From: Candidatus Nanoarchaeia archaeon
GTDB lineage: Archaea > Nanobdellota > Nanobdellia > SCGC-AAA011-G17 > GW2011-AR17
DNA: 64,000 nt
Assembly: GCA_041659245.1 (NCBI GenBank)
Contig: JBAZYQ010000001.1
Span: 4,912-68,911 of the forward strand
Reading direction: 5' to 3'
Position 1 is the first letter of the stretch, and every line of letters starts with the position of its first letter. Below the pieces are notes generated by a model. That model saw nothing but the letters and a program-made list of their open reading frames with translations. It did not search any database and was not told the origin of the DNA. This document shows, piece after piece, positions 7,339 to 64,000 of the stretch. Both the position numbers and the translations under genes were made by a program.

Positions 7339-7344
7339 ATTCAA

Positions 7345-42976: not shown

Positions 42977-43032
42977 CAAACTGAGCTTATGCATTCACAA
43001 GGCTTTTTAACCCTCTTTTCCAGATTTATTCT

Positions 43033-45204: not shown

Positions 45205-45264
45205 TTCGGAAGGTTTATATATTACTTCTTCGGGGTAACTCTAGAGTATTCAGGGGGTAAATCA

Positions 45265-46017
45265 ATGGTAAATCTTGAACAAATAACAGCAATCGCAACA
45301 ACTACTTTTTACAAGCCGGGCTCTGAGAATGATGCAATGAGGGCTGAGATTGCAAAAAAGACTGTAAGAAATGCGGCTGATTTGGGATATCCTATTGTTA
45401 TTGTTGACGGCGGCTCTTCTGATGAATTGCTGAAAGAGTTTCAAAGCTACGGGCAAAATGTTTATGTTCATGTCGAGCCAAAAATGGGCATGGGAGAAAG
45501 CAGAAGGCACGCCCTGAATCTTGCAATGAAGCTTGGCAGGCATGTTATTGCATGGGTTGAGCCTGAAAAAGAAAATTATATTCATAGTATTGCAAAAACA
45601 GTTGAGCCTATTTTTGACGGCTCTGCTGATTTGGTTGTACCCAGAAGGGCATCATTGGCATCTTATCCTCTTGGGCAGCAGCAGGCGGAAAGCATGGGCA
45701 ATTTATTCTGGAACAAATTAACAGGGCATGATTTGGACATGTGGTTCGGGCCAAGGACTTTCAGAAGGGATATCAGCGCTTATTTTACAACATATAACGG
45801 AGAGTATGGCGACAAATGGGATTCAATTTTCATACCGGTAATGGATGCCATAATCGGCGGAGAGAATGTTAAGAGTGTTACAGTTGATTACACCCATCCT
45901 GCAGAGCAGACTGCTTTTGAAGAGCAGGACTTGAGCTTGTATTTGAAGAGAGTCAAGCAGCTGGAAAACCTGCTTCCTGCATTGGAAACACACTGGAAAA
46001 AAAGAAAGGGAATCTGA
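45265..46017 (+). CDS. Hypothetical protein, possible GT-A-fold (nucleotide-diphospho-sugar transferase-like)
   Basis: IVIVDGGSSDELL resembles the GT2 xDD motif region. Otherwise unrecognised. Confidence 0.35.
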   Translation: MVNLEQITAIATTTFYKPGSENDAMRAEIAKKTVRNAADLGYPIVIVDGGSSDELLKEFQSYGQNVYVHVEPKMGMGESRRHALNLAMKLGRHVIAWVEPEKENYIHSIAKTVEPIFDGSADLVVPRRASLASYPLGQQQAESMGNLFWNKLTGHDLDMWFGPRTFRRDISAYFTTYNGEYGDKWDSIFIPVMDAIIGGENVKSVTVDYTHPAEQTAFEEQDLSLYLKRVKQLENLLPALETHWKKRKGI

Positions 46018-46023
46018 AATAAG

Positions 46024-46734
46024 ATGATACAACTCGGCACTCTGGGAAACTTCTTCCACGCAATCTGGCTTGGCAGGATAGAAGGTTCTCTTAAGCTGGA
46101 GAATACAAATTTTATCGGGCAGGACAATGTCATTGCAGTTGGAAGAGATTTAAAAAATGATTTGGAATCTGTTGTTGCTCTTCAGCCTGATATTGTTGTT
46201 GCAGGAAATCACGGGTGCAGGGTTAATTGCTCCGAGTGCTGCGACAAGCCTGCTTACAGGAACAGGGTTACGAGAAGATACTGCGAATACCTTACTGAAG
46301 TTGGAAATTATTGCATTACAAAGCTTGCAGGCAAAAACTGCACAGACGATGTTTGCGAAAAATGGTTCTGCTTAGAGTTTTGCGAAGATCCTGTTGACAG
46401 GTTCTCTGGAAATTCACTTGAAGTGCCTTTGATAGGAAATACTGCGAATATTTACAGCCTAAGGCAGAAGGTGGAATTTTTGGCAATTGTTACAGCAGTG
46501 CAGACAGGTATTAAAACATGCAATATAGCTTCGCTTGCGTCACGCGGTAGGGAAGTAATACTTTACAAAAAGGCAAAAGAAATGCTGTTGAAAACAGCTG
46601 ATGTGAAAGCGGCTGCACTTATTGAGAATGATGAATTTGAACAGGCAAAGGCATTGATGGGAAGCAATAATTATTTTGAAGCGCTGAAGCAGTGGGAAGA
46701 AAGATATTGCAAGAGGAAGAAGTTGAAGTTATAA
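46024..46734 (+). CDS. Cysteine-rich hypothetical protein (possible metal/Fe-S binding)
   Basis: Cys clusters HGCRVNCSECCDK (CxxxCxxCC) and YCEYL…NYCITKLAGKNCTDDVCEKWFCLEFC. The 236-aa size is too short for a canonical radical SAM barrel. Confidence 0.4.
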   Translation: MIQLGTLGNFFHAIWLGRIEGSLKLENTNFIGQDNVIAVGRDLKNDLESVVALQPDIVVAGNHGCRVNCSECCDKPAYRNRVTRRYCEYLTEVGNYCITKLAGKNCTDDVCEKWFCLEFCEDPVDRFSGNSLEVPLIGNTANIYSLRQKVEFLAIVTAVQTGIKTCNIASLASRGREVILYKKAKEMLLKTADVKAAALIENDEFEQAKALMGSNNYFEALKQWEERYCKRKKLKL

Positions 46735-46748
46735 TCTTGAGATACAAA

Positions 46749-47960
46749 ATGAAAAACATAATAATCGTGAATCAGGCGCCGCACGGAATAGGTCCCATAT
46801 TGAGGGCTGCGGAATTTGCGCAGGATTTGTATCATATGCTAAAAAAAGATAATCCTGCCAATGAATATGAAATTGTCTTTACAGAACCTGAAAAGCCGTT
46901 TCTAAAGAAAGTTTTGCAAAATGAAACATTTCTAAATGACGAGGCTTTGGAGCATGTATGGCTTTCGCCTGAATTTGGAGCTCTTGTAAATTCATTTGAT
47001 TTCAGCAGTTCAGATTACAAAGACAGGCTGGAAAATATAGCTGCCAACAGAAGCAATCTTGAAGCAAAACTTTTATCATTGCTTGAAAATGGAATGGAGG
47101 CTTATAAGCTTGTAAAGCCGGAAGAAAGGATGGCTGTAAAAAGCGATAATTTGTTATGTGAAGTCAGCCATAATCCCATTCTAAGAACTGCTGTTGACGG
47201 TTCGCTTAGCATGTTTTATACAACAATAGGATTGTTTTCAGAAATATTAAAGCATGCTTCTGATGTAAACCCCAGATACAATGATGCAGAACTGCAGAAA
47301 GTAGTGCAGGCTTGCATATCAGAAGCAAAAGACGTAGAAAGCGTGCAGACTTTTCTTATGGTGGCAGAGCCATCAGCACTTACATACAAGGGGAATACAA
47401 ACAAAAATGAGCTTTGGATTCCGCCTTTCATAAGGCCTCCTGCAGGAAGCACTGAAACACTCAAACAAGGAGTTTATCTGAATATTTCAGGAATAGATTC
47501 AGTGCAGAAACAGATAGTTGATTTGGCAAAGCCATTCATGGATGCAGGCTATGCTGTTTATTATCCACCAAGCTACAAGCAAGGCATTGAAGGCGGTATA
47601 GAAAAAGCGCCTGTTGAAAAAGGCATAAGCATTTTCTCAAATCCTGCAATTATTGCAGCTGTCGGCAGAATGGGCTGGAGTTCTGTGTGGGAGCCCATGA
47701 TGAATGGAAGCCCGTTTATTACATATGAATATGATGAGAAAGAAGATCCTGAAATGCATCATAATGTAAGAACACTTGAACAGCTTGGATTGGGTGTTGT
47801 GATGAAGACAGGAGATGAACCAAAAGTTGTAATGGAAAAGGCGCTTGCATTGAGACCAAAAATACAGCAATATCTTGGAACACTTCAGCAAAAGTATGGC
47901 ACATTAAATGGAATAGAGTTTGCGGCAAAAAGGGCTTACTCAGCGCTTAAAGGCTGGTAG
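46749..47960 (+). CDS. Hypothetical protein with GT-B (MurG/GT28/GT1-like) C-terminal domain features
   Basis: C-terminal PAIIAAVGRMGWSSVWEPMMNGSPFITYEY…QLGLGVVM resembles the GT-B donor-binding region. Start placed at the internal ATG 46749. Confidence 0.4.
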   Translation: MKNIIIVNQAPHGIGPILRAAEFAQDLYHMLKKDNPANEYEIVFTEPEKPFLKKVLQNETFLNDEALEHVWLSPEFGALVNSFDFSSSDYKDRLENIAANRSNLEAKLLSLLENGMEAYKLVKPEERMAVKSDNLLCEVSHNPILRTAVDGSLSMFYTTIGLFSEILKHASDVNPRYNDAELQKVVQACISEAKDVESVQTFLMVAEPSALTYKGNTNKNELWIPPFIRPPAGSTETLKQGVYLNISGIDSVQKQIVDLAKPFMDAGYAVYYPPSYKQGIEGGIEKAPVEKGISIFSNPAIIAAVGRMGWSSVWEPMMNGSPFITYEYDEKEDPEMHHNVRTLEQLGLGVVMKTGDEPKVVMEKALALRPKIQQYLGTLQQKYGTLNGIEFAAKRAYSALKGW

Positions 47961-48024
47961 TTTGATTTTAATTCTAAATACAGATTCCATAATGCTTATA
48001 AGTTAAGGAAAGATTTCAAGATAT

Positions 48025-48915
48025 ATGATTTCAATTGTCATAACTGCATTCAAGGAGCCTTTGGTATATCGCGCTATTGAAGCAATTCTTTTCCAGAAAA
48101 TCAAGGAGGATTTTGAGCTTGTTGTTGCAGCGCCTGACAAGGAAACAGAAGATCTTGTAAAGGAATACCACAAAAAATACAAGCAGATAAGATTCTTCAA
48201 GGATCCGGGAAAGGGAAAGAGCTTTGCATTAAATCTCTTATTCAAGGAATTGAAAGGAAAAATCTGGATTTTCACTGATGGAGATGTATTTTTGGACAAT
48301 GGCGCAATAAACGCAATGCTTGACATGTTCAAGGATGAAAAAATAGGCTGTGTTTGCGGCAGGGTAATGTGCGAGAATCCAAGATACACGATGTTTGGCT
48401 ATTGGGGCAAATTGCTTGCTGATGTTGGAGCGCACAGGATAAGAAAGGAATTGTTCAAGCAAAAGCAGTTTCTTGAATGCTCAGGCTATTTGTTTGGCTT
48501 CAGAAACAATGGAATCATTACAAGCATTCCTGTTGATGTTGCCGAGGATTCAATAATACCTTATTATTTCTGGAAAAAAGGTTATACAATCGGCTATGCA
48601 GAGAATGCAAGAGTATTTGTGAAGAATCCGACAAACCTGCATGACTGGATGAAGCAGAGAAAGAGGACTGCTGATGCGCATACAAAGCTTACAAAATATG
48701 TTCCTGATTTTCCAAAAGTAAAATCATTCAAGAACGAGGCTTCAAAAGGAATAAGATGGATTTGGGGCTATCCAAAAAGCGTCAAGGAATTCTTTTGGAC
48801 AATACTTCTTGTGTTTGCAAGGCTCTATATGTGGCTTTCATTGTTCTATGACCTGAAATTCAAGAGAAAAGGGTATGTTGACGGCTGGGAAAGAAGCGAA
48901 ACAACTAAGATTTAG
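48025..48915 (+). CDS. GT2-family glycosyltransferase
   Basis: ISIVITAFKEP…VVAAPDKET…FTDGDVF (DxD), C-terminal hydrophobic helix. Stop overlaps the convergent gene end. Confidence 0.75.
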   Translation: MISIVITAFKEPLVYRAIEAILFQKIKEDFELVVAAPDKETEDLVKEYHKKYKQIRFFKDPGKGKSFALNLLFKELKGKIWIFTDGDVFLDNGAINAMLDMFKDEKIGCVCGRVMCENPRYTMFGYWGKLLADVGAHRIRKELFKQKQFLECSGYLFGFRNNGIITSIPVDVAEDSIIPYYFWKKGYTIGYAENARVFVKNPTNLHDWMKQRKRTADAHTKLTKYVPDFPKVKSFKNEASKGIRWIWGYPKSVKEFFWTILLVFARLYMWLSLFYDLKFKRKGYVDGWERSETTKI

Positions 48916-49622
48916 ATTTTTCCTGTTTTCATCATTTCTTCTATTTGCTTCATTCTATCAAATGAGCCCATGTCTTCAAGAAATTCTTCTGTATAATAAG
49001 CATAAACCTTTTTGCCTTGTTTTAGCAATTCAGGAAGAAGCTGCCTTTCAAGATTATAGCTTCCTTCTGGGATTATTGAAAGAGATTTTGGGCTTAAAAC
49101 ATACATTGAAGCATTTGTCTTGTCAATCTTAGGAGTTTCTGCTGAATGCGGCTTTAGCCAGAAATGCTTTACTTTACCTTTCTTGTCATATTCAATCAAA
49201 TCGCTTTCTTCAGGATGGCTTCCTTTTTGCACAACTACTGTTGCATCAGCTTTCATTTTCTTATGAAATTGCATGAGCTTTTTTGCGTCAATTTTGCACA
49301 CTATATCGCCTGAAAGCACAATAAAGTCCTCTTTTAGCTTTTCTTTTATTATTCTTAAAGGGCCTCCTGTTCCAAGCGGACTTTTCTCTACTGAGTATTC
49401 AATGTGAACTCCTAATTTGCTTCCATCTCCAAAGTATTTTTCAATTACATTGGATAAATAGCCTGAGCAGATTATGATATCTGTAATTCCCTGTGTTTTT
49501 GCCCATTCTATTGTATGCTCAAGAATAGGTTTTCCATTAATCAGAAGCATTGGCTTTGGAGTGTCATAAGTAAGCGGCTGAAGCCTGACTCCTTTTCCAC
49601 CAGCCATTAGAACTAGTTTCAT
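48912..49622 (-). CDS. Sugar-1-phosphate nucleotidyltransferase (D-glycero-D-manno-heptose 1-phosphate guanylyltransferase HddC-like)
   Basis: LVLMAGGKGVRLQPLTYDTPKPML N-terminal signature. ~236 aa, short like HddC. Start overlaps the gmhA stop. Confidence 0.7.
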   Translation of the reverse strand: MKLVLMAGGKGVRLQPLTYDTPKPMLLINGKPILEHTIEWAKTQGITDIIICSGYLSNVIEKYFGDGSKLGVHIEYSVEKSPLGTGGPLRIIKEKLKEDFIVLSGDIVCKIDAKKLMQFHKKMKADATVVVQKGSHPEESDLIEYDKKGKVKHFWLKPHSAETPKIDKTNASMYVLSPKSLSIIPEGSYNLERQLLPELLKQGKKVYAYYTEEFLEDMGSFDRMKQIEEMMKTGKI

Positions 49623-50218
49623 TTTTTGCCGTAAAGCTCGTTTTCAATGACTTCGCACATGACATGCCCCACTGTGATGTGCATTTCCTGTATTCTTGCG
49701 CATCTTTCAGAAGGAACCTTAAGAACATAATCCAATCCCATGCTGTTCATCTTTCCGCCATTTGAGCCTGTCCATGCAATTGCCTTTGCGCCTTTTTCCT
49801 TTGCAGCCTTGAGCGCATTGATTACATTGTCAGAATTGCCTGATGTTGAAATTCCTATAACAGCATCATTTTCATTTACCAAGTCCATTACCTGCCTTGA
49901 AAACAAGTGTTCATAGCCCATGTCATTGCCTATTGCAGTGAGGATTGAAGTGTTTACAGTAAGCGCTATTGCCGGAATGCTTGGTCTTTTGTTTTCCCTG
50001 TCAAGCAAACAGACTAATTCTGCCGCAATATGCTGGGCGTCTGCTGCAGAGCCGCCATTGCCCAGAATAATCATCTTGCCCTTGTTTTTGTAGCAATTGA
50101 CTATAATTTTGCACATCTGCTCTATTTCATTTGACATTGAAACAAGCTTTTGCTTTGATTCAAGCGATTCATTCAAGCTTTTTGTGATTGTATTTATCAT
50201 TTGATTTTTTCCCTCCAA
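49619..50218 (-). CDS. gmhA: Phosphoheptose isomerase (sedoheptulose-7-phosphate isomerase, SIS domain)
   Basis: IILGNGGSAADAQHIAAEL and SGNSDNV SIS motifs; 199 aa. Confidence 0.85.
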   Translation of the reverse strand: MEGKNQMINTITKSLNESLESKQKLVSMSNEIEQMCKIIVNCYKNKGKMIILGNGGSAADAQHIAAELVCLLDRENKRPSIPAIALTVNTSILTAIGNDMGYEHLFSRQVMDLVNENDAVIGISTSGNSDNVINALKAAKEKGAKAIAWTGSNGGKMNSMGLDYVLKVPSERCARIQEMHITVGHVMCEVIENELYGKK

Positions 50219-51141
50219 AACTCAACCATATCCTTAAGAGTCTTGTCAATGGGTATAGACTGCTTCCACCCTGTGCTGTTTTTAAGCTTTGTGGAGTCTC
50301 CGAATATTATTGTTTCGTCAGTGGTTCTCAATAACTTGGGATCAACTTCTATTTTGCATTTTATGCCTGTGATTTTTATTATTTCATCAAGTATGTCTTT
50401 AATCAGATATGCCTTTTCTCCGCAAAGGTTATAGACTTCTCCTGCTTGTCCTTTTTCAGCCAGAAGATAGAATGCATTGATTATGTCTCTCACATCTGTG
50501 ATAGCTCTTTTTGCATTAAGGTTTCCAACTTTAAAGACAGGATTCTGCTTCCCCTTCTCTATCATCACTGCCTGTTTTGTGAAATCAGAGCAAACATCAT
50601 TGACTTTTCCTGGGCCTGTTGTGTTGAATATTCTTACTCTTATGCCTTTCATTCCAAAATTCTTAAAATACTGGTACGTGAGAAAATCCTGCCCAACCTT
50701 GCTGACTCCATAGGGATGCAGTGGAAGCAGTGAATGCTCTTCTTTTATCGGAATCTCTTCAGGCTTTACAAATCCGTACTCTGCTGATGAGCATGCAACA
50801 ATCACAACCGGATTCATTTTTAATTCTTTCAATGACTCAAACAAGTTGATTGTGCCTTCAATGTTTGACTGTACTGTGAAGTTTGGCTTTTCCCATGAAA
50901 CAGTTGGATAGCTTTGCGCAGCAAGATGGTAGACTTGGTCAGGCTTGAATTCCTTCAATAGCTTCTTGAATTTTTCCTTGTCTCTTACGTCAAGCTCAAC
51001 TGCCTTTCCTAATTTTTTTAATTCCTTTATATCAGAAATAGGCTCATAATAAGTTGACATGACTTCCGCGCCTTTCTCATGCAAAAATCTTGCAAGATGG
51101 GGGCCCATGAATCCGCCTGCGCCTGTTATGAATGCTCTCAT
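50197..51141 (-). CDS. Rmd-like short SDR (NDP-sugar reductase/epimerase), paralog of 42062..42976
   Basis: MRAFITGAGGFMGPHLARF, YGVSK. Conserved blocks with 42062..42976 (TGPGxxxxxVCSDF, EKG, NLNAKRxxTDVRDI, YNLCGEKAY). Start overlaps the gmhB stop. Confidence 0.8.
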   Translation of the reverse strand: MRAFITGAGGFMGPHLARFLHEKGAEVMSTYYEPISDIKELKKLGKAVELDVRDKEKFKKLLKEFKPDQVYHLAAQSYPTVSWEKPNFTVQSNIEGTINLFESLKELKMNPVVIVACSSAEYGFVKPEEIPIKEEHSLLPLHPYGVSKVGQDFLTYQYFKNFGMKGIRVRIFNTTGPGKVNDVCSDFTKQAVMIEKGKQNPVFKVGNLNAKRAITDVRDIINAFYLLAEKGQAGEVYNLCGEKAYLIKDILDEIIKITGIKCKIEVDPKLLRTTDETIIFGDSTKLKNSTGWKQSIPIDKTLKDMVEFWREKIK

Positions 51142-51701
51142 TTGTTCTCACCTAATATTATCTTTGCCGCATCATATAAATCTTCTGCAGTATAGTTAGG
51201 GACAGCCTCTGCTGTATTGTCCTTTCCGCCGTAGCCTGTCAGAACAAGAATTGTTTTCACGCCTGCTGACAAACCTGCTTTAATATCTGCTTTTTTGTCT
51301 CCAACCATAAAGCTTTGTTTTAAATCAATATTATGCTCTTTTGCAGCCTGAATAAGCATTCCCGGCTTTGGCTTTCTGCAATCGCATTCTGTCTTGTATT
51401 TTCCAATGCCTTTTTCAGCATGGTGAAAGCACATGTATGTCGCATCAACCCTGGCTCCTTTTTCTTTAAGCAAGGAAATAACTTTCAAATGCACTTTCAT
51501 TGCCTGCTCTTCAGAGCACATTCCCCTGCCAACAGCAGCCTGGTTTGTTATTATGATAACTTTGTATTTCTTGTTAAGAAGCGCAATTGCCTCGGCAGCT
51601 TTTGGAATAAGAGATACATCTTCCTCTTTGGTAATGTGGTCTACATCCTTTATTATAACTCCGTCCCTGTCCAAAAATACTGCTGGTTTTTTTAGTTCCA
51701 T
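51138..51701 (-). CDS. gmhB: D,D-heptose 1,7-bisphosphate phosphatase (HAD family IIIA)
   Basis: AVFLDRDGVII HAD motif I, CDCRKPKPGML Zn-site/motif, GDKKADI motif. Confidence 0.85.
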   Translation of the reverse strand: MELKKPAVFLDRDGVIIKDVDHITKEEDVSLIPKAAEAIALLNKKYKVIIITNQAAVGRGMCSEEQAMKVHLKVISLLKEKGARVDATYMCFHHAEKGIGKYKTECDCRKPKPGMLIQAAKEHNIDLKQSFMVGDKKADIKAGLSAGVKTILVLTGYGGKDNTAEAVPNYTAEDLYDAAKIILGENK

Positions 51702-51800
51702 TACTATAATTGAAGGCTTTTGAAATGCTTAAAAAGTTTGTGTATAGCGCGTCGAAACTGCAGATAAACAGTTTACATTTCTTATACATAAGGCTTTTAA

Positions 51801-52721
51801 ATGGTTCCTTGCAAAATTCTGCATATGAACGACAAAGTTTATCTTATGGCAAACAATGCAGCAATTGACGCTACAATACTTACAAAAGGTGACATAGTGC
51901 CTGCGTATGCAAAACATCATGGAATCCCTTTGGAGAGAATAGCTGCAATAGGCGATGAAATAATAGACTTGCCTATGCTTACAACTGAGGGATTGGGCTT
52001 TGTTGGCGCTCCTGCCAATGCTCAGGACAAGGTAAAGGAGGCAGTTGCAAAAATGCAGAATGGCTGGATTTCTTCGTGCCAAGTGCTTGACGCATTTATT
52101 GAGTTTTATGCTCTCACCAAGAAAAGAAATATTTCCCATATAATCTCAGACAAAGATGGAGTGCTTCTTGCAAAGGGTGACTTGGCAAGGGGCGCTGAAT
52201 TTTATGCTCTTATGCAATATGCAGGAGTTGGCGGGAATCCTTTTGTTACTGTATTAACAGGTTCTTCTGTAGGACAGAATGCAAAATTCATGAAAGGATA
52301 TGGCCTTGATGCAAGGCTTGAATCAAATCCTGCTATAAAGAAAAATCCTTATCTGCTTCTCGCTGAAAACGGGTTAATTCATCTTGATGTGCTGTCAGGC
52401 AATACCTTGAACTTTTGTAAAATACTTAATCCCTATCTTCTCACAAAACTGAAAAATGAATTTGAGCCTGAAGTTGCTAGGAGAATGGAAGCAGAGATAT
52501 TCCCTATATTTGGTTTTGAGTGGAGTGCTGATTCTGAAGATCAGGCTGAGAAGGTGTATCATGCTCCAAAGCAAGGCATGGTTACATTCAATGTGCCTCG
52601 CTATTTTAAAGACGGAAGCGATTACAGGAAATCAGCGCAGGCAAAAGCATACAGGGAAAACATGATAAAGCTCATGTCTGAAACTGCTGAGAAAATACAG
52701 ATGCATTATGAAATATTATAG
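51801..52721 (+). CDS. HAD-superfamily-like protein with unusual motif order (KdsC-like segment upstream of a DxDG motif-I segment)
   Basis: IAAIGDEIIDLPML (HAD motif III/IV-like) at ~aa 45-60 precedes IISDKDGVLL (motif I-like) at ~aa 113, then VTVLTGSS. Confidence 0.4.
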   Translation: MVPCKILHMNDKVYLMANNAAIDATILTKGDIVPAYAKHHGIPLERIAAIGDEIIDLPMLTTEGLGFVGAPANAQDKVKEAVAKMQNGWISSCQVLDAFIEFYALTKKRNISHIISDKDGVLLAKGDLARGAEFYALMQYAGVGGNPFVTVLTGSSVGQNAKFMKGYGLDARLESNPAIKKNPYLLLAENGLIHLDVLSGNTLNFCKILNPYLLTKLKNEFEPEVARRMEAEIFPIFGFEWSADSEDQAEKVYHAPKQGMVTFNVPRYFKDGSDYRKSAQAKAYRENMIKLMSETAEKIQMHYEIL

Positions 52722-52744
52722 AATGAATTTATTATTTCGGCTTT

Positions 52745-53671
52745 TTATTTCTTGTCTTTCCCAATCCTTATCATCAGCACGCCTACCAACGCAAGCCCAA
52801 TAGTCGCTATTGAATAAATCAAAGACGCAGCCATCACAAGCCCTGCGGGAACTCCTATCAAGCCGTACATGTAAACAGACGCTCCCTCTTTCAATCCCAA
52901 GCCTGAGATTGTTATTGGAATAAGGGCAAGTATATTTATGGTTACTGAGATAAGATATACATAGGGGAAATCAACATAAACTCCCGCCATCCCGAGCACA
53001 AGCCACATTGACAATGCAAGTATTGCCCAGCGGATTGCAGACAAAAGAATCAGGATTATGAACAATGAATAATCTTTTCTCATAAACAATTTTAGCTTTT
53101 CAGTGAATTCCTCAAATGACATTGCATATTTTTTAAGAAATTTTGAAATAACCTTTGTTCCAAAGCGAAGAAACAGGACAAATGAAAGCAATGCAATTAT
53201 TGCAATCATCATTGGAATGTAAATTTTTCCTCCAGGCAACAGAAGATAAAAGGTGATTGTGGCCATCATAACATAAAAAGCAAATGTTCCTGCCTTGTCA
53301 ACAAGATACATGATTGCAGAATCCTTCACTTCAATATTCTGCTTTTTAAGAAAATAAAGAATTGACAAGTCACCGAATTTTCCGGGAATTATCGTGCCTA
53401 TGCTCCAGCTTGAAACAAAATGCCTGAACAGCGTCATGAACCTTATTTTCACATTTATTCTTGAAAGAACAAGATAATATGATGCCGTGTTAAGCAATGC
53501 ATTAAGGAGATAGCCAATGGCAATTATTAAATAGACAAGGGGATTTGTGGATGAGATAATGCCTGCAATTTCCCTGAACCCGATTGCATATATCAGCGCT
53601 GAAATTATTGCAATTCCAAACCCGGCTTTCATGAGGGTAAAATATGGCTTTTTCATATTGCTGTAATGCAT
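52745..53671 (-). CDS. Flippase-like membrane protein (lysylphosphatidylglycerol-synthase TM region / UPF0104 family)
   Basis: ~8 TM. Resembles LPG_synthase_TM-type flippase-like domains, which are commonly fused or adjacent to GT2 in archaea. Probable start at the internal MKKPYF (~53656). Confidence 0.55.
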   Translation of the reverse strand: MHYSNMKKPYFTLMKAGFGIAIISALIYAIGFREIAGIISSTNPLVYLIIAIGYLLNALLNTASYYLVLSRINVKIRFMTLFRHFVSSWSIGTIIPGKFGDLSILYFLKKQNIEVKDSAIMYLVDKAGTFAFYVMMATITFYLLLPGGKIYIPMMIAIIALLSFVLFLRFGTKVISKFLKKYAMSFEEFTEKLKLFMRKDYSLFIILILLSAIRWAILALSMWLVLGMAGVYVDFPYVYLISVTINILALIPITISGLGLKEGASVYMYGLIGVPAGLVMAASLIYSIATIGLALVGVLMIRIGKDKK

Positions 53672-53960: not shown

Positions 53961-54059
53961 TAATAAGTAAAATTTTATACCTCTATTTTTTGGTAGCTAT
54001 ATTAGTTTAAGTTTAGTTTCGATTTATTTTCTACGACAGAAACGCGACATTTAATGAAT

Positions 54060-55535
<1,476 letters not shown>

Positions 55536-55900: not shown

Positions 55901-55930
55901 GTGCCGTGCATAGGCAAGACAGTCTAGATC
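55901..55930 (+). other. 5' strand of the 23S pre-rRNA processing stem (pairs with 58844..58873)
   Basis: GTGCCGTGCATAGGCAAGACAGTCTAGATC pairs with AATCTAGGCTGTCTTGCTTATCACGGCA, about 25/28 complementary. Confidence 0.6.
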
Positions 55931-55939
55931 CTACTTATG

Positions 55940-58850
55940 CCATCAGGTGAACGACTTGGTTCAGGACACTGAAGAAGGGCGTGGCAAGCTACGAAATTCT
56001 CTGGCGAGGTGCATGCGGCCATTGAACCAGAGGTACCCTAATGTGACCTCACATCGCGCAGCAATGCGCGATATCCGGAAACGGAGAGGAACCCGGGGGA
56101 CTGAAGCGTCTTAGTACCCGGAGGAAAAGAAATCAAACACGAGATGCCGTTAGTATCAGCGAGACAAAGCGGCAGAAGGCAAACCGAATGCTGTATAGAA
56201 ATGTACAGCGCATGTGGTGTTATAGGGACTGCATTTAGATCATAGTAAGTTGATTCAAAGTTTTCTGGAAAGAAATGCCATAGAGGGTGAAAGCCCCGTA
56301 GAAGTAAACTGAAACGGTTGAGCAGTTACCTGAGTAGCGCTACTTGGATATGTGGCGTGAAATCGGGAGGCATCAACTCCCAACCTTAAATATGTCCTGA
56401 GACCGATAGCGAAGCTAGTACCGTGAGGGAAAGTTGAAAAGAACCCGTAACAGGGAGTCAAAAGAGCCGGAAACCTGGTGGTGATCGTTAGATAGGGCAC
56501 TACGGTGTTCTATCGTTCGTTTCGAATAACGGGCCAAGGAGTGCATATGAGTGGCGAGGGTAATGGTGTTAAGCCAGCACCCTAAGGGAAACCAAATTTC
56601 CGCAGCCGCAAGGCGAGGGAAAAGGTATGAAAGTGCCATTAGTCACTTGTTTGCGACCCGAAACCGTGCGATCTAGTCGAGGGTAAGGTGAAATCCAGCA
56701 ATGGATGGAGGCCTGAAGAGTTACTGCGTGCATGCGTCCTTCTAACTTTCGACTAGGGGTGAAAAGCCAATCGAGCACGGTGATAGCTGGTTCCTGCCGA
56801 AATAGGCGCCAGTCTAGTTTCAGAGGAGATGACCGAGGAGGTAGAGCTACGGATTGGGAAGCCCGGGGGAGAAATCTCTCACTTTCCTGTCCAACTCCGA
56901 ATGCTTTGGTATCGTAGAATCTGAAAAACGGCGGCACTGGGGTAAGCTTGTGTCGCTAGGGGGGAACAGCCCAGACTGCAGTTAAGGTCCCTAAGTATTG
57001 ATTAAGTGTTAACGGGCGAAAGGGTTTGAAGCCCGAGACAGCGGGGAGGTATGCTCAGAAGCAGCAATCCTTCAAAGAAAGCGTAACAGCTCACCCGTCA
57101 AGGTCTCATGCCCTGAAAATGGACGGGACTAAATCAATTACCGATACTGCAGGCCACAGAAATGTGTGCGGTAGGCAGGTGTTCTGCAGGGGTAGAAGCA
57201 CGTTCGAGAGTATGTGTGGACCTTGTGGAATTATGAATCTTGGCGGTAGTAGGAACTAGACAGAGTGAAAATCTCTGATACCGAAAGGGCTAGGGTTTCT
57301 CAGCAATGTCAATCAACTGAGAGTAAGTCAGTCCTAACCGGCCTCCTAACTGGAGGAACTGGGAAAGGGCAAAAGGTTAATAATCCTTTACTAATCGGAT
57401 ACGCGCGGCAACGCAAGTTCCGCTTCAGACGTTTTTGGCTAGATCGACAGAAGCAGTCGCTTCTGTTAACATGGATAAGCCGGTGGAGTACCGTAATGGT
57501 GAGAAACCGGTTAAACTATGGAATAGCAGTCCTTATGGATTGTTCGATTGATGCCTGGAGCCCGTGAAAATGGAGCGGAAAAGGAATCTGATTATCTGTA
57601 CCAAGAACCAGCACTGGTGCCCCTAGATGAGAAGTCTAAGGTATGAGGGAATAAACTAAGCTAAGGGAAATCGACAAACTAGCCCCGTAACTTCGGAAGA
57701 AGGGGTCCCTGCGATTGTATTCGTATGAGTGCAATTACAGGGTTCAATAACTAGGGGGGCCCGACTGTTTAACAAAAACAAAGCAATTCGCGAGTCCGCA
57801 AGGATGTGTATGGATTGCTACGTCTGCCCAGTGCCAGTACTTTAAACTCCGGTTCAACGGAGCTAAGAGCTGGTAAACGGCGGGAATAACTATAATTCTC
57901 TTAAGGTAGCGAAATACCTTGTCGTTTAAATGACGACCTGCATGAAGGGCGTAACGAGGTCCCCATTGTCCCTAGCTAGAGTCCTCCGAACTCAACATTC
58001 TGGTGTGAAGTCCAGAGATTTCCAGTGGGAAGCGAAGACCCCGTAGAACTTTACTGTAGTTTGTTGCTGTGATGCGAGTTTTGTTGTGCAGCGTAGGCGG
58101 AAGTCGCTAAAGCAGGATCGCTAGATTCTGTGTAGACGCCGATGAAACACCGCCCTTCAGGGCTTGCATCGCTCACCTCGCGAGAGGGACACCAATAGAT
58201 GGACAGTTTGGCTGGGGCGGCACCCTGCTGAAAGTGTATCAGTAGGGCCCAAAGGTTGACTCATCCCATTTAGAAATTGGGAGTAGAGTGCAAGAGCAAA
58301 AGTCAGCCTAACTGAATTTCGAATCGAAAGAAATTCAGGGACGCAAGTCTGGTCTAGCGAACCTCTATGTCCTCCTTGATGGGGGCTAGAGATGACAGAA
58401 AAGCTATCTCGGGGATAACTGAGTTGTCGCGCCCTAGAGTTCCTATCGACGGCGCGGCTTGCTACTTCGATGTCGGCTCATCCTATCCTGGGCGTGCAGA
58501 AGCGTCCAAGGGTGGGGGTGTTCACCCATTAAAAGGGTTCGTGAGCTGGGTTAAGAACGTCGCGAGACAGTTTGTATGATATCTACCGGAAATGTATTAA
58601 GGTCTGAGGGGAAGAATCGTCTAGTACGAGAGGAACGGCGAATCGTGGCCTCTGGTCCATCGATTGTCCGACAGGGCAGGTCGAGCAGCTACGCCACAAG
58701 TCATAAATCCTGAAAGCATCTAAGGATGAAAGACGCCTCAAAAAGAGACCTAGAGCGCCTAAAGAACATAGGCTTGATAGGACTGGAGTGTAAGCACGAA
58801 GCTTCGGCGACGTGTTCAGCTCGCAGTTACTAAACACTCAAACTAAATCT
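55940..58850 (+). rRNA. 23S (LSU) rRNA, archaeal type
   Basis: 5' region GAAGAAGGGCGTGGCAAGCTACGA; conserved LSU blocks throughout (GGATAACTGAGTTGTCGCGC…, sarcin-ricin loop AGTACGAGAGGAAC). Ends bounded by the processing stem; approximate. Confidence 0.85.
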
Positions 58851-58892
58851 AGGCTGTCTTGCTTATCACGGCATTCCTTTTTTCAAAAATCT

Positions 58893-59154: not shown

Positions 59155-60345
59155 ATGATCTTTAAGAAAGGCGAGCTAAAAGAATTATGGCCGTTCTATT
59201 TATATTACTTGATTTATGGATTTTCATCTCTGGTAATGCCTTTTATGATAATATATTTCAGGGATCTGAACCTGACTTTTTTCCAGATTGCATTAATCAC
59301 GTCGGGTTTCAGCATTGGGATGATGCTTTTTGAAGTGCCGACAGGCGCTTTTGCAGACGGATTGAGCAGAAAAATTTCAGTCATCATTGGCTTTCTGATG
59401 AATGCAGCTGCAATTTTAATGTTCCCTTTTTTTAACAGCCCTTATGTCTTATTTGTGCTTTGGACTTTCGCAGGAATAGGCATGAGCTTTATTAGCGGGG
59501 CAGAGGAAGCATGGGTTGTTGATAACCTGCGCAAGGCGAAACGGAAAGAGTTGCAGCAGGAATATTTTATCAAGGCGGCAAGCATTGCTGCATTTGGGGC
59601 GATATTTGCGCCATTGCTTGGCGCACTTTTTGTCAAATCACATCCAATTAAGTGGCTTTGGCTTATTTTCGGAGCTGGATTTTTGATAAACGCGATTATA
59701 TTATCTCTTTTTGCAAAGGAGCTTTACAAGCCGAAGCGCGTCAGCTTTTTGAAAAGCCTTAAAGAGACGTTTAAGAACGGTGCAAAGGGAATAAAGTTTA
59801 CATTTAGTCACAAGGTTATTCTGCTGCTGGTGTTAGGAGGGGCTTTTGCTATTCTTATGGAATTTGCATCTGACGGTTGGCAGCCTCTTTTAGTCAATTT
59901 TTCAATGCCAAAATACGGGTTGGGCATTATATTCTCTGTTGTGGCTGCAGTTTCAATGGTAGTGCCTTTTTTGTCAAGGCTTTTGCTGAGATTTAAGGTA
60001 AAGAATGTGATAGCAATTACTATTTTATTTAATATGATTTTATTATTTTCACTGATATTCCTATTTCCTCCAATGTTCATGTTTGCAGCTATAATATTCG
60101 TATTTAACAATGGGATTTGGTATTTGAATAACCCGCTTTTGCAATCTTATCTTCATAAATTTATTCCTACAAAAATAAGGGCAACAGTTATTTCTACGAA
60201 AAGCATGTTCAATAAGCTAGTTATAATCTTAGGTTCGCTTGTAGCAGGTGTTTTGATGGACTCTTTTGGTCCACAAAAGATAATTGCCTTAGGCAGTCTG
60301 TTCGGAATTTTCGCTATATTTTGCTACCTTAAGATAAAAGATTAA
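59155..60345 (+). CDS. MFS-superfamily transporter
   Basis: 12 predicted TM in 6+6 arrangement with a central loop, 396 aa; MFS-like GxxxDGLSRK loop 2-3 motif. Confidence 0.8.
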   Translation: MIFKKGELKELWPFYLYYLIYGFSSLVMPFMIIYFRDLNLTFFQIALITSGFSIGMMLFEVPTGAFADGLSRKISVIIGFLMNAAAILMFPFFNSPYVLFVLWTFAGIGMSFISGAEEAWVVDNLRKAKRKELQQEYFIKAASIAAFGAIFAPLLGALFVKSHPIKWLWLIFGAGFLINAIILSLFAKELYKPKRVSFLKSLKETFKNGAKGIKFTFSHKVILLLVLGGAFAILMEFASDGWQPLLVNFSMPKYGLGIIFSVVAAVSMVVPFLSRLLLRFKVKNVIAITILFNMILLFSLIFLFPPMFMFAAIIFVFNNGIWYLNNPLLQSYLHKFIPTKIRATVISTKSMFNKLVIILGSLVAGVLMDSFGPQKIIALGSLFGIFAIFCYLKIKD

Positions 60346-60411
60346 TTCACGCCGCGAGGCTGGCTTTTTCTTGCAAACGCTTATATATTACGAAGTCATA
60401 CCTCCTGTTCT

Positions 60412-61191
60412 ATGGCGAAAAACGCTATTCTCGCACTTCTTGCCGCTTGTTCTATGTATTCTGCAAATGCAAATGCTGAGCAGTGTGTTGACCCTGTGAA
60501 GGAAACAGAGATAGGAGCGACAGCTGCATATACTAATAATCAAAATGAGTTTGGAAACTTGGATGCATTCCAGCTTCGCATCGGCGGAAGCACTGTAACA
60601 AATGTTTATGATAATCTTGATTTGGTTTTGGACAGCGGATATACAATGAATTATTACGGATACGAAAATATAGGGCTTCAGAAAGACTCTGTGACTGATG
60701 TTTCTGCCTTGCTTATGACAAATTACATGTGCGATTATTTTGGAGGCGGGTTGAATGTTGTTTATTACGACGGGTTTGGGGCTTATGATGACGGCTCTGA
60801 CATGAGCCTTACTGACTATTCAATAGGGCCTGCTGCCAGGGCGCAGTTTCTTGCCGAGGACATGGTTTTGACTTTTGATTATTCAATCGGATTTGGCGAG
60901 TACGGCAACAACAGGAACGGCGAGACGTTTAATATCAAGAACCAGTTTGGAATTGGCTTGGATTATAATATTATTGAAGGGCTTTATGCAGAAGCTTATT
61001 CAGAAGTTGTTTACAATTACATGCCTTTTACCTCAAGGCAGACTCTTGAGATTGTTGCAGGCGCTGAGCTGAGCTACAGGTTTGTGAAGTTTATGGCATT
61101 GAATGTATTTTATGAGCATTCCCGGATTTGGGGCGAGCCCACAAGGGAGAATATTGATTCTGTCGGCGGCGGATTGTCGCTGTTTTTCTAG
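60412..61191 (+). CDS. Secreted beta-rich protein (signal peptide, Gly/Tyr/Asn-rich, C-terminal Phe); paralog of 61819..62640
   Basis: MAKNAILALLAACSMYSANANA signal peptide. Alternating hydrophobic/polar pattern suggesting beta-strands; ends …GGGLSLFF. Confidence 0.55.
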   Translation: MAKNAILALLAACSMYSANANAEQCVDPVKETEIGATAAYTNNQNEFGNLDAFQLRIGGSTVTNVYDNLDLVLDSGYTMNYYGYENIGLQKDSVTDVSALLMTNYMCDYFGGGLNVVYYDGFGAYDDGSDMSLTDYSIGPAARAQFLAEDMVLTFDYSIGFGEYGNNRNGETFNIKNQFGIGLDYNIIEGLYAEAYSEVVYNYMPFTSRQTLEIVAGAELSYRFVKFMALNVFYEHSRIWGEPTRENIDSVGGGLSLFF

Positions 61192-61268
61192 CTTCCTGTC
61201 TTGCCTAAAACGTATCTACTTATAAATGACAAATAATAGAAAGGTTTATATATGGGCTTCTCTTTCAA

Positions 61269-61502
61269 ATGACTAAGATTTATGGGGGTAAAATGGATAC
61301 TACACTTGAAAAGTTATGCCAGTATCATAGCTGCAGTGGAAAGGCAATCAGCATAATCTGTGCAAATAAAACAGGCGAGGATCCAATTTATGCGCTTGCA
61401 TGCGAAACCCATGAGCCGGATATTATCAGGGACATGAAAGATTTGTATGTACCCATGGGGTATCTTATTTCAATCCTTGACATTGCGGAGGATATTCAGT
61501 AA
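61269..61502 (+). CDS. Small hypothetical protein (77 aa, Cys-containing)
   Basis: ORF only. CQYHSCSGK…CANKTG…ACETHEPD could be a small metal-binding protein. Confidence 0.3.
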   Translation: MTKIYGGKMDTTLEKLCQYHSCSGKAISIICANKTGEDPIYALACETHEPDIIRDMKDLYVPMGYLISILDIAEDIQ

Positions 61503-61520
61503 AATAAGCAGGGGGATAAA

Positions 61521-61793
61521 ATGGACACAAACAAATTTTTGGACACGATGCTGGAAGACTTTGGGGTAAAAGCGCCTAAAGGCGTATCGCTTACAGTTGC
61601 TGTTAAAAGAAAAGACGGCTGGTCATATGGGGAATACAAGAATCCTGATGTGCTGATTGCTGTCAGCAGAGGAGATGACATACGGCTTTTCCCTGTCTGT
61701 GCAGAGCAGGCAAGGCAGAGGCTAAGCTCGCTGCAGGCATGGTTTGAGACAGATGGATACATAGTCGGGCAATACGATATAATTGTAAAATAA
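61521..61793 (+). CDS. Small hypothetical protein (90 aa)
   Basis: ORF only, in co-directional tandem between the two secreted paralogs. Confidence 0.3.
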   Translation: MDTNKFLDTMLEDFGVKAPKGVSLTVAVKRKDGWSYGEYKNPDVLIAVSRGDDIRLFPVCAEQARQRLSSLQAWFETDGYIVGQYDIIVK

Positions 61794-61818
61794 AAAAATC
61801 TTGAAATAAAAAATCAAA

Positions 61819-62640
61819 ATGACAAAAGGCAAAATAAAAGCAGGACTGGCGGCAATCTTGGCAGCTGCTTCAGTGTCAGCTTCTAATGCAAAAGCAGAGG
61901 ATTTTGTTCCTGAAACAGATGATACAGTTACAATAGCTTTAACAGCAGGATACCAGGACAATAATCTTGAGGATTATTCTTCATTGGATTTTTCAGAAGG
62001 ATGGCAATTAAGAGGGCAGGGAGAATCAGCAGTCACTTTTTATCCCGGAGCGCAGCTTGTCACAAGGGGGCTTTTGGAAATAGACAATGTTAATTATTCA
62101 GACGGCAACGGGGAAAATCTTGTTGTTGACACAGATATTTCTGAATTATGGGAATGGGCTCACAGGGCAGAAACTTACGCATTGAATCTTGGCGCAGGTG
62201 TTAATTTTGACTGCAGGTATGAGACTGGAAATTATCTTGAAGTTCCAATAACAAAAACAATTTGCGGTGCAGGGCCTATGATTGATTTTACAATTGATTC
62301 AGAGTATGTTAATTTCGGGCTTAATTATGCTCTTGATTTTGGCACAATGGGAAATAATGTTCAGGGGTTCAATGATTTGATGAAGCACAAGCTGAGATTA
62401 AATCTTGGATTTCATCTTGGGCCTGTTGATGTTGAGGGCTATGTGCAGGGAGAGTATAATACTGCAATGGAAGGCGCAATAAACAGGGAAAATTTATTTT
62501 TATACGGCGGAACAAATGCAAAAATATGGGTGCATGAGAATGTTGCTTTGCAGGCAGGCTATGAATACATATGGTTTTATGGAGACCAGGACGGCGTTGA
62601 CAGCAATACTTACAGCCTTGGCTTAGTGGGGAGGTTTTGA
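61819..62640 (+). CDS. Secreted beta-rich protein (signal peptide, C-terminal Phe); paralog of 60412..61191
   Basis: MTKGKIKAGLAAILAAASVSASNAKA signal peptide. Shares GNN and alternating-residue blocks with 60412..61191; ends …GLVGRF. Confidence 0.55.
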   Translation: MTKGKIKAGLAAILAAASVSASNAKAEDFVPETDDTVTIALTAGYQDNNLEDYSSLDFSEGWQLRGQGESAVTFYPGAQLVTRGLLEIDNVNYSDGNGENLVVDTDISELWEWAHRAETYALNLGAGVNFDCRYETGNYLEVPITKTICGAGPMIDFTIDSEYVNFGLNYALDFGTMGNNVQGFNDLMKHKLRLNLGFHLGPVDVEGYVQGEYNTAMEGAINRENLFLYGGTNAKIWVHENVALQAGYEYIWFYGDQDGVDSNTYSLGLVGRF

Positions 62641-64000
62641 TGGGAATTAAAAGCTGGCTTAAGAAAACAGGAATGGCAGTTTCATTAGCAGGCGCTTTGA
62701 CCGGTTGCGACATGCTTTCGCCTGAAGGAGAACAGGTAATACAGGATGCTGACGGAGTTTTGACAGCTGAAGAGCAGGCAAATGCCGAGCAGGCTCTTTC
62801 ACCTGACTATTATGCAAATGATTTCATTCCTTTCAAGCCGCTTGTGAATGACTTTAATGTTTTCATGGGAAATGAACTGGTTTCGCAGGGATTAAATGAA
62901 AGAAGGTTTGATGATGAACTGCATGTTTATATGGTAAATGATGAAGCTGAAATGAGAGAAAAATATACATACGGCAACAGGCCATGGGTGCCTCCCGCGT
63001 TTCACGGAGACACAAATTCCACTTTATACATACTGAAGAATTCATATATCCCTGCTGATTTCATAATGGCATTCACGCATGAGTCAGGGCATCATTTCAG
63101 AAGCTCTGCTTATGAGTTTCCTTCAAAGGCGTATGAAATGTATTTTGCATTCAGGGCTTACGGCTTTAACAGGAGAATTGGCTCTTTGTTTGCGGATTAC
63201 GCCTCTCCAGTCCCAATGTCCACTTCAGGGGATGAAAGCAGAAGGTGCCTTCCTGTTGATGAATACTTTGCAGGCGATTATCACAAATATTATTCATTTG
63301 GAGATCTTGGCTTTCTTATACAGGCAAACCTTGAAAACGGGAACCTGGAAAAGGCATTTAACAATATCCTTACAAGGCCCATACTTTATCTTGAGCAAAC
63401 AACTGTTGATGCTGCAAGGCAGTACGGCAACATGTGCGAAGTAGGACTTGGCGAGTTTAGAAAACTGCTGGAAAAGCCGGGCTTCAGGCAGGGGTTATTG
63501 AGGCACATGTCTCCTGAAGAGGCAAATGAGTTTACTGATTATCTGCTCATTAATGCAAATGACATTATGTCTGCTGTAAAATCAAACGAGGGCATGTATC
63601 CCAATATTTTGGAAAGGCAGGAGATGCTCCGCAATGAAGAACAATTCCTTGATTCATATCCTAATAACCCTTTTTTCAGGGGAAATGTTACTGAAATGAT
63701 TTCATATGGATATTACCTGAATGCATTGGACCTGCTTAACGATTCTGCGCAAATGGCTACAAATGCAGGGATAGTAAAAGCACATAAAATTGCAACAGAC
63801 ATAATCGCCTTAAATAAGGATTATCCGTGCCAGTATAAATTCTATGAGTGCATGGGCAAGGCTGCTGCAGTGAGGGCTTCACAAGCGCTAGGTTATTTAC
63901 TTGCAACATATTATCCAAATGAGCTCATAGCTTCAGGAGTTGAAACGCCTGAGACACTAATCTTAATACCTAATGAATATGCTTCAAAGTTTTATTCAAA
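62639..64000 (+). CDS. 3'-truncated CDS: lipoprotein-like secreted protein with HExxH zinc-metallopeptidase motif
   Basis: ATG overlaps the upstream stop (ATGA). Signal plus lipobox-like LAGALTGC; AFTHESGHHF (HExxH). Frame is open to the window end. Confidence 0.5.

Follow-up and report, generated by a model that had tools for sequence, protein, structure and literature searches.

The locus described here lies towards the 3' end of a 64,000-nucleotide stretch (hereafter the window) of contig JBAZYQ010000001.1, from the assembly GCA_041659245.1 of a Candidatus Nanoarchaeia archaeon. Two open reading frames (ORFs) on its forward strand, barrel A (60412..61191, 259 amino acids (aa)) and barrel B (61819..62640, 273 aa), encode paralogous proteins that are predicted to be exported and to fold as beta-barrels of the kind found in bacterial outer membranes. 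Between them are two small ORFs, s1 (61269..61502, 77 aa) and s2 (61521..61793, 90 aa), and B is followed by the ORF of a lipoprotein with an HExGH motif (62640..64000), of which the first 453 codons fall within the window. This last ORF continues past the window end, and its full length of 556 aa was taken from contig L001, which is identical to the window. All of these are encoded on the + strand, and all results presented are computational.

A and B are 24% identical across their full length (BLASTP, E value 0.002), and comparison of the A-family and B-family profiles with hhalign gave a probability of 98.3% and an E value of 2.3e-14. Judged from these alignments, the paralogy of the two proteins is beyond chance. 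Both N-termini, as read from the sequence, have a basic n-region, a hydrophobic h-region and an AxA site which are kept in the alignments, and both proteins are predicted to carry a Sec signal peptide. In A this comprises residues 1-22 (60412..60477, + strand; MAKNAILALLAACSMYSANANA followed by EQ, with the site between ANA and E), and in B residues 1-26 (61819..61896, + strand; ending in SASNAKA before ED, with the site between AKA and E). The tandem pair of paralogs with signal peptides, as proposed in the initial annotation of this DNA, is therefore upheld by both the N-terminal features and the full-length similarity. The signal peptide of A has an additional feature, a lipobox-like LLAAC at residues 9-13 (60436-60450); LLA[AG]C occurs in most members of the A family and Cys13 is nearly invariant in the family alignment. 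From the sequence, processing of A by signal peptidase I or by the lipoprotein route is ambiguous, and A might be lipid-modified rather than cut between ANA and E.

AlphaFold2 models were built from an alignment of 23 sequences drawn from the two subfamilies, and show 12 antiparallel strands in each protein, with a predicted local distance difference test score (pLDDT) of 85 and a predicted template modelling score (pTM) of 0.79 for A, and a pLDDT of 80 and pTM of 0.77 for B. The lone helix of each model is N-terminal (residues 2-19 in A and 2-24 in B) and corresponds to the signal peptide, from which strand 1 is separated by a gap of only ~10-14 residues. The modelled strands are 12-20 residues long and are joined at both ends by connections of 2-5 residues, except for a 10-residue loop (residues 48-57) of B. 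Foldseek searches of the PDB at E <= 0.001 returned 249 matches for A and 275 for B, and the best 50 of each, which were those listed, are all bacterial outer-membrane barrels. The top matches, with a probability of 1.00, are the 12-stranded translocators of the autotransporters Hbp (3aeh), EspP (2qom), EstA (3kvn), NalP (1uyn), BrkA (3qq2) and AIDA-I (4mee), and are followed in the match list by FadL/TodX, OmpG and porins. For A, the E values to the Hbp, EstA and EspP translocators range from 3e-8 to 5.5e-8, with template modelling scores (TM-scores) of 0.49-0.58 for the autotransporter matches; the best matches of B are the translocators of EstA, Hbp, NalP and EspP.

The beta-strand periodicity that had been noticed in both proteins was recovered for B, in which the difference in hydrophobicity between the two strand faces is well above that of within-strand shuffles (z-score 3.3; exceeded by 3 of 2000 shuffles), and is weak in A. 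At the end of the models that bears the termini, 5-7 alternate residues of the apolar face line up as a belt edged by Tyr, Phe and Trp, and the opposite strand face is net acidic, with many Gly, Asn, Asp, Glu, Lys and Arg residues. A further feature of B is a pair of cysteines, Cys132 and Cys149 (codons 62212-62214 and 62263-62265, + strand), which co-vary across the beta5-beta6 hairpin; both are present in 11 members of the family (P0001-P0010 and P0024) and both are missing from P0011 and P0012. The modelled turn at 140-141 lies midway between the two residues, and on this model a disulfide between them is probable. Their placement provides an independent check on the modelled strand register and fits an extracytoplasmic location. 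The best-conserved connecting loop of the combined A and B alignment (0.77-0.92; 0.92 in B) is that between beta7 and beta8, where the hairpin tip carries a GNN motif in both proteins. It lies at residues 165-167 of A (60904..60912, + strand), in invariant or nearly invariant columns, and at residues 178-180 of B (62350..62358, + strand), where G178, N179 and N180 are invariant. Across the barrel family, loops, turns and strand cores are conserved about equally, and hypervariable surface loops were rejected on the grounds that loop conservation is similar to that of the strand cores.

Both proteins end in a motif resembling the sorting signal of bacterial barrels. In A this is GGGLSLFF (61165..61188, + strand), with G at position -6, L at -3 and F at -1, and in B it is SLGLVGRF (62614..62637, + strand), with G at -6, F at -1 and G at -3, a position which is occupied by W, A, V or I in relatives. 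Statistics for the C-terminus were taken over 39 non-redundant members of the family. The aromatic end picked out by the initial annotation is a property of the family, as F, W or Y is found at -1 in 38 of the 39; G is found at -6 in 36 and a hydrophobic residue at -3 in 33. The full G-x-x-hydrophobic-x-aromatic motif is present at the C-terminus of 29/39 members, compared to 1.5% of internal positions. We take this terminus to be equivalent to the beta-signal found on barrels of bacteria and mitochondria, G-x-x-hydrophobic-x-hydrophobic. The role of the beta-signal in recognition by the barrel assembly machinery (BAM) and by SAM (sorting and assembly machinery) has been reviewed (PMC8292188). 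Together with the 12-stranded models and the listed PDB matches, it gives A and B the fold and the C-terminal signature of bacterial outer-membrane barrels that had been suspected from the residue pattern.

The family is small and narrowly distributed. Among 5.8 billion clustered proteins, 12 homologous clusters were found for B and 10 for A, and one more came from a profile search. When 1.84 billion representatives were searched exhaustively with HMMER, 19 matches were obtained at E < 1e-3 and no bacterial homologue emerged. Every named member comes from metagenome-assembled genomes (MAGs) of Nanoarchaeota, Nanoarchaeia or Woesearchaeota, and proteins identical to A and B are named 'Candidatus Nanoarchaeia archaeon' by NCBI. 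A scan of the genome collection with alignment A1 found only two species representatives, and a metagenome scan with a distant subgroup found four loci. The family has so far been seen only in this one DPANN group (Nanoarchaeota/Woesearchaeota-type MAGs). In Pfam, A and B have sub-threshold matches, all of them to outer-membrane barrel families (PagL, OmpA_like, DUF5777 and OMP_b-brl). OMP_b-brl is matched by 11 of 25 diverse members, and all other weak Pfam matches of these are likewise to bacterial outer-membrane barrel families. Four relatives pass the OMP_b-brl gathering score of 28.7 bits (P0011, 30.0; P0026, 31.7; P0028, 33.7; P0040, 37.1). A third, shorter barrel paralog of 204-220 aa is encoded at two of the related loci (L008, 7951-8613, and L015, 297-911), matches the family hidden Markov model at an E value of ~1e-33, and occupies the position 5' of A where the window has a transporter gene. 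In P0032, P0038, P0045 and P0046 the barrel is preceded by an N-terminal extension of 200-280 aa; that of P0046 has many Pro and Lys residues, and resembles a tether across a periplasm or a region akin to a passenger.

The genetic background of the barrels is archaeal. An archaeal rRNA operon lies upstream of the transporter gene on the same strand as the barrels (+), and consists of the small subunit rRNA gene (54058-55534), a tRNA-Ala gene and the large subunit rRNA gene (55923-58853), so that 1.6 kb separates the archaeal 23S rRNA gene from barrel A on one contig. It is on account of this operon that the source organism is taken to be an archaeon, and the jump in GC content at 54-58 kb is likewise due to it. 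Fifteen related loci were obtained, of which the short contigs L012 and L013, and L001-L003, which represent the window's own contig, give no independent context. An archaeal rRNA operon is also directly 5' of the barrels in L005, L006 and L008, and in L005 and L006 the downstream side carries genes for Nop10, eIF2-alpha, S27e, L44e and GINS. The barrel arrangement recurs in independent ENA, JGI, NCBI and Logan assemblies. Since the barrels adjoin archaeal rRNA and housekeeping genes again in these other assemblies, and the named homologues are all archaeal, the archaeal host is confirmed and the contig is not chimeric, a concern that was raised when the bacterial appearance of the proteins was first noted. 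A TATA-box-like sequence, TTATATAT (60381..60388, + strand), is centred ~27 nucleotides 5' of the ATG of A, and a second TATA-like box lies ~21 nucleotides 5' of the annotated ATG of s1. Both were read from the sequence; they would fit native archaeal promoters, and suggest that the mRNA of A is leaderless or has a short leader.

The rRNA genes themselves differ between the window and two loci of close relatives. The 23S rRNA gene is interrupted in L005 (4918-8552, 3.6 kb), where an ORF for a LAGLIDADG endonuclease is located at 7048-7533, and in L006 (563-4821, 4.3 kb); that of the window has no interruption and measures 2.9 kb. Within the window, the rRNA operon has no linked 5S rRNA gene.

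Other genes travel with the barrels. The ATG of the HExGH lipoprotein overlaps the TGA of B (TGATG), which implies translational coupling, and B and this ~550-aa lipoprotein are present or missing together across the loci. Its lipobox LTGC is encoded at 62697-62708 and the zincin motif HExGH at 63078-63092 (both + strand). All four orthologues have ALTGC or LAAGC as the lipobox, as is expected of a lipoprotein, and the lipobox Cys, H147-E148-x-G150-H151 and eight Cys are invariant between them. A Glu eight residues after HExGH is also conserved in the four orthologues; searches of Pfam, NCBIfam and the PDB gave no match. The description of this product as a metalloprotease-like lipoprotein that overlaps the last stop thus holds at the level of motifs, and finds no counterpart in a known family.

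The invariable partner of the barrels was overlooked by the initial annotation and lies beyond the window end. A protein with CARDB/immunoglobulin-like (Ig-like) domains follows the barrel(s) in every locus that is long enough (L001-L003 on the window's own contig, L004-L011, L014 and L015). It is 390-430 aa long, with a signal peptide and, at the C-terminus, a basic-tailed transmembrane helix. In Pfam it matches CARDB at 28.6 bits (cut-off 22.7), with weaker matches to fn3_6 and NPCBM_assoc, and its comparison with the PDB gave no match that was accepted; that to V-ATPase subunit C at an E value of 0.02 was judged to be due to chance. In most loci the CARDB gene is followed on its 3' side by that of a lipoprotein-like protein of 148 aa with six Cys (6411-6857 in L001, beyond the window). 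This protein has no family match, and a diverged second copy of it is encoded in L004. No useful match came from NCBIfam for the proteins of the cluster.

The two small ORFs between A and B belong to a real family of small proteins, of ~70 aa, that lack a signal peptide and carry a CxxxxC...CxxH motif. This motif is present in s1, and s2 is its tandem paralog in which most of the Cys/His ligands are lost. The likely start of s1 is Met9, at 61293, behind a Shine-Dalgarno-like GGGGGT site. Read from codon 9, s1 shares with s2 the initiation region GGGGG(A)TAAAATGGA(T/C)AC (61283-61299 and 61511-61527), and both then start with MDT. The near-identity of the two initiation regions indicates a tandem duplication and suggests that s1 starts at 61293. 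s1 is homologous to L015_69 (E value 5e-10), with cross-matches to the s2 group, and has no Pfam or NCBIfam match; s2 is similar to L008_71 (8.5e-6), L004_83 (2e-4) and L015_68 (3.3e-6). Between A and B the family is represented by 0-3 tandem copies, and it is missing from single-barrel loci. The bracketing of two tiny ORFs, which the initial annotation gave as a trait of the pair, is therefore real in the window without being a defining trait, and the idea that the system always includes the small ORFs was rejected because of the variation in copy number. They are perhaps a variable cytoplasmic accessory, maybe a regulator.

Directly 5' of A is the gene of a major facilitator superfamily (MFS) transporter (59155..60345, + strand; Pfam MFS_1, E value 6.8e-33), which was rejected as a functional partner because it diverges at a housekeeping-like rate and because the third barrel paralog stands in its place in L008 and L015. 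This gene is probably a neighbour and not a member of the module. The difference in rate can be seen by comparison of the window with L005, at a 16S rRNA identity of 94.0%, where the MFS protein is 91% identical, compared to 45% for barrel A, 55% for the CARDB protein and 39% for the 148-aa protein. The values for L006 are again 91% for MFS and 45% for barrel A. For L008, at 96.8% 16S rRNA identity, the lipoprotein is only 53% identical, and for L010 and L011 the CARDB protein is 41-42% identical and the barrels only ~27%. This rate of divergence is typical of exposed surface proteins. Genes of insertion sequence type adjoin the cluster in two loci (a helix-turn-helix gene and a DDE_3 transposase gene in L004, 8576-9578; an InsA-like zinc ribbon gene in L007, 153-1096), and a nucleotidyltransferase gene (Polbeta/NTP_transf_2) recurs downstream in L004, L007 and L015.

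The barrels had also been proposed as glycoprotein substrates of an adjacent island, and this was not borne out, as A has no N-x-S/T sequon and B has one, compared to ~2.4 expected from composition. An island of genes for surface-glycan biosynthesis is located at 41095-53671. It encodes a set of the GDP-heptose type, with a SIS isomerase (49619-50218), a nucleotidyltransferase (48912-49622), a HAD phosphatase (51138-51701) and a GHMP kinase (44182-45204), in addition to a GDP-mannose 4,6-dehydratase (41095-42087), two more epimerases/dehydratases, glycosyltransferases (GT) of the GT1, GT2 and GT4 types and an LPG_synthase_TM protein (52745-53671). Heptose pathways are typical of bacterial lipopolysaccharide, capsules and S-layer glycans. 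On the 5' side of the island, two B12-binding radical S-adenosylmethionine proteins (34555-36090 and 38739-40154) flank an unannotated ORF of 604 aa (36877-38691) and a methyltransferase gene (36100-36750).

Several known systems invite comparison with A and B. The Gram-negative family OMP_b-brl (PF13505) likewise has a signal peptide, amphipathic all-beta strands and a G-x-x-hydrophobic-x-aromatic end with Phe. It differs in that the host here is an archaeon, and no bacterial sequence is close enough to be found by the 1.84-billion profile search. The structure usually cited for OMP_b-brl, 2LHF, is an 8-stranded barrel, compared to the 12 modelled strands of A and B; it has been named as a structure for the family (PMC9581022). 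By sequence, the superfamily touches PF13505, although A and B cannot be filed there by score. The type Va autotransporters (Hbp, EspP, NalP, EstA, BrkA and AIDA-I) share a 12-stranded monomeric barrel at the C-terminus of the chain, and the extension before the barrel in P0032, P0038 and P0046 is an autotransporter-like trait of these relatives. Autotransporter identity was rejected for A and B themselves, as they have no passenger, no linker helix and no match to PF03797 (Autotransporter). NanC/KdgM, Tsx and OmpG, with 12-14 strands, are likewise small, monomeric, open and plug-less, with a charged hydrophilic lumen, as A and B appear to be from their models; they have long outer loops in contrast to the short loops at both ends of A and B. 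The structural matches include OmpG and the E. coli porin 2x9k, and no match of A or B to the KdgM, Tsx or OmpG sequence families was found. A classical trimeric porin (OmpF/OmpC/PorB, with 16-18 strands and a long L3) was rejected on the basis of the 12 strands, the short connections and TM-scores of 0.33-0.45.

In archaea, the only outer-membrane pore known to have been characterised is Ihomp1 (Imp1227) of Ignicoccus hospitalis; Ignicoccus is a partner in a DPANN symbiosis. Ihomp1 is small and alpha-helical rather than a beta-barrel, assembles into oligomeric pores and has no homology to A and B. Gene-level pairing of a barrel with a tether or lipoprotein is seen in diderm bacteria, as in Thermotoga Ompbeta/Ompalpha, OmpA/Lpp, LptD-LptE and Slam with surface lipoproteins. 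There is no sequence relationship between these pairs and the cluster described here, in which the putative partners are the CARDB protein and the novel HExGH lipoprotein. Several archaea that live close to other cells, including the DPANN lineage ARMAN, are reported to have double membranes, and Ignicoccus has been reviewed in this context (PMC4243693). In the literature, no published OMP-type barrels or PF13505 proteins were found for DPANN, Woesearchaeota or other Nanoarchaeota, and what comes closest is a single line on a possible PopA-like relative in Altiarchaeales (PMC12228718).

The interpretation that we favour, with slightly better than even confidence, is that A and B belong to a fast-evolving module of the archaeal envelope, where they serve as transmembrane channels of the OMP type, and that they reside in a bilayer outside the cytoplasmic membrane. 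Established here are the genes and their paralogy, the archaeal context, the predicted fold, the OMP-like signatures of the sequences, the narrow distribution and the linkage of the genes; insertion into a membrane, the identity of that membrane, a channel role and contacts between the products are inferences. Both proteins would be exported by Sec and their signal peptides would be cut. Because the hydrophobic belt of the models is about one bilayer high, and insertion into the energised cytoplasmic membrane is implausible, the barrels would insert into a bilayer outside it, which would most parsimoniously be an outer membrane, or an outer layer of lipid, that belongs to the archaeon. The archaeon's own layer is preferred here because of the core syntenic position of the genes, the partners that are anchored in the archaeon's own membrane and the lack of hypervariable loops. 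The module comprises, in order, the barrel(s), for B the coupled lipoprotein with the zincin motif, the anchored Ig-like (CARDB) protein and the small Cys-rich lipoprotein. Anchored in the cytoplasmic membrane, the Ig-like protein may act as a spacer or tether that sets the distance of the outer layer, and the barrels may act as water-filled diffusion channels or anchors, with B also contacting its lipoprotein as a partner.

A number of observations weigh against this interpretation. An outer membrane is not known from any Woesearchaeota-type archaeon, and no Omp85/BamA-type insertase is known from archaea. Pfam matches to Omp85 or POTRA were absent from the six genes in or beside the finding, from 20 genes at 34.5-53.7 kb, from the four genes 3' of B in L001 and from the Pfam listings of the other loci, a search that covered these loci. 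Only three types of barrel paralog are found near each other, while diderms normally have many OMP families. The alignment used for modelling is only 23 sequences deep, and the TM-scores to autotransporters are moderate (0.42-0.58 over both models) with a high root-mean-square deviation. The models give each protein an even number of antiparallel strands (12); that these close into a barrel with the apolar face outward is presumed. The strand-face statistic is weak for A (z-score 1.6; exceeded by 139 of 2000 shuffles). At the level of sequence, OMP_b-brl (PF13505) matches B at 15.3 bits and does not match A, the cut-off of 28.7 being reached by neither, and no PDB sequence matches the profile of the barrel family at E values up to 10. 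As A and B are sub-threshold in Pfam and have no PDB sequence match, their link to bacterial OMPs rests on the fold prediction, the relatives and the motifs.

Other explanations have to be weighed against the same evidence. One of these would be that A and B are ordinary Gram-negative OMPs on a chimeric contig, in a mis-binned MAG or from contamination, in keeping with their bacterial-looking fold and motifs. This is effectively refuted, as the genes are 1.6 kb 3' of an archaeal 23S rRNA gene on one contig, the same arrangement is found in independent assemblies with archaeal translation genes on the other side in L005 and L006, and the 1.84-billion search found no bacterial homologue and named matches that are all archaeal. 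It is improbable, in our estimation, that A and B do not reside in a membrane at all and are soluble or S-layer-associated barrels of a pseudo-periplasm. They would then bind lipids or other hydrophobic ligands for a lipid-auxotrophic cell that scavenges host lipids, or serve as a pore or spacer in an Ig-like lattice. Such archaea are generally thought to have one membrane and an S-layer, and the invariable partner of the barrels is Ig-like and C-terminally anchored, and resembles archaeal surface-layer proteins; the OMP_b-brl matches and the beta-signal are nevertheless signatures of membrane barrels. The hydrophobic-substrate channels FadL and TodX are among the structural matches, as a ligand binder might lead one to expect, yet no soluble protein is among the best 50 matches listed per model. 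Strand amphipathicity alone is compatible with either face pointing outward; the polar face, however, is charged and Gly-rich as in porin lumens, and a 12-stranded lumen would be too wide for a packed hydrophobic core.

The main rival is that the same barrels are directed at a host, although this seems unlikely. An episymbiont would secrete A and B at the contact site into the membrane of its host, possibly the outer membrane of a diderm bacterium. The beta-signal would then be recognised by the BAM of the host, the barrels would open a metabolite channel or anchor the symbiont, and the Ig-like protein would bridge back to the archaeal membrane. That the beta-signal is conserved in a lineage from which no insertase is known suggests that a recognition machine selects for it, and would be accounted for in this way; BAM, however, acts from the periplasmic side, and there is no known route into the periplasm of a host. 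The family is found only in host-dependent DPANN archaea and the cluster evolves far faster than its housekeeping neighbours, as host-interaction genes do, whereas hypervariable loops are lacking and the loops are conserved to the same degree as the strand cores. Woesearchaeota and Pacearchaeota, for which bacteria have been put forward as hosts, are reported to have proteins with murein-transglycosylase domains (PMC8204110). The syntenic core position beside the rRNA operon, with partners that are anchored in the archaeon's own membrane, points to a structural envelope module rather than to an effector, and for this reason barrels in the archaeon's own outer layer remain the interpretation that we prefer.

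Transmembrane beta-barrels that carry a beta-signal at the C-terminus are regarded as a hallmark of diderm bacteria and of the organelles that descend from them. The assembly of these barrels is thought to need machines of the Omp85 family (PMC8292188). Neither such proteins nor the machinery for their insertion are known from archaea, which makes their presence here unexpected. The novelty of the present locus, as far as sequence and models indicate, would lie in a known fold and a known signal in a cellular and phylogenetic setting that is unprecedented. A native archaeal family of such barrels would challenge the accepted view in one of three ways, through a DPANN outer membrane populated by its own barrels, through assembly that is free of BAM, or through a symbiont that targets the assembly pathway of its host. 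It is possible, though on present evidence we think it rather doubtful, that a Woesearchaeota-type DPANN clade builds a real second membrane or colonises the membrane of its host by means of barrels with the OMP-type beta-signal. If true, these would be the first bacterial-type transmembrane beta-barrels to function in the archaeal domain, and would imply either a route of barrel assembly in archaea that is independent of Omp85 or has gone unrecognised, or an archaeon that exploits the BAM of a bacterial host. A DPANN outer membrane with barrels would also bear on the origins of outer membranes and on the old reports of double-membraned archaea. With its two small barrels, its Ig-like anchor and its lipoprotein, the locus provides handles on the envelope of uncultured Woesearchaeota and its interface with the host.

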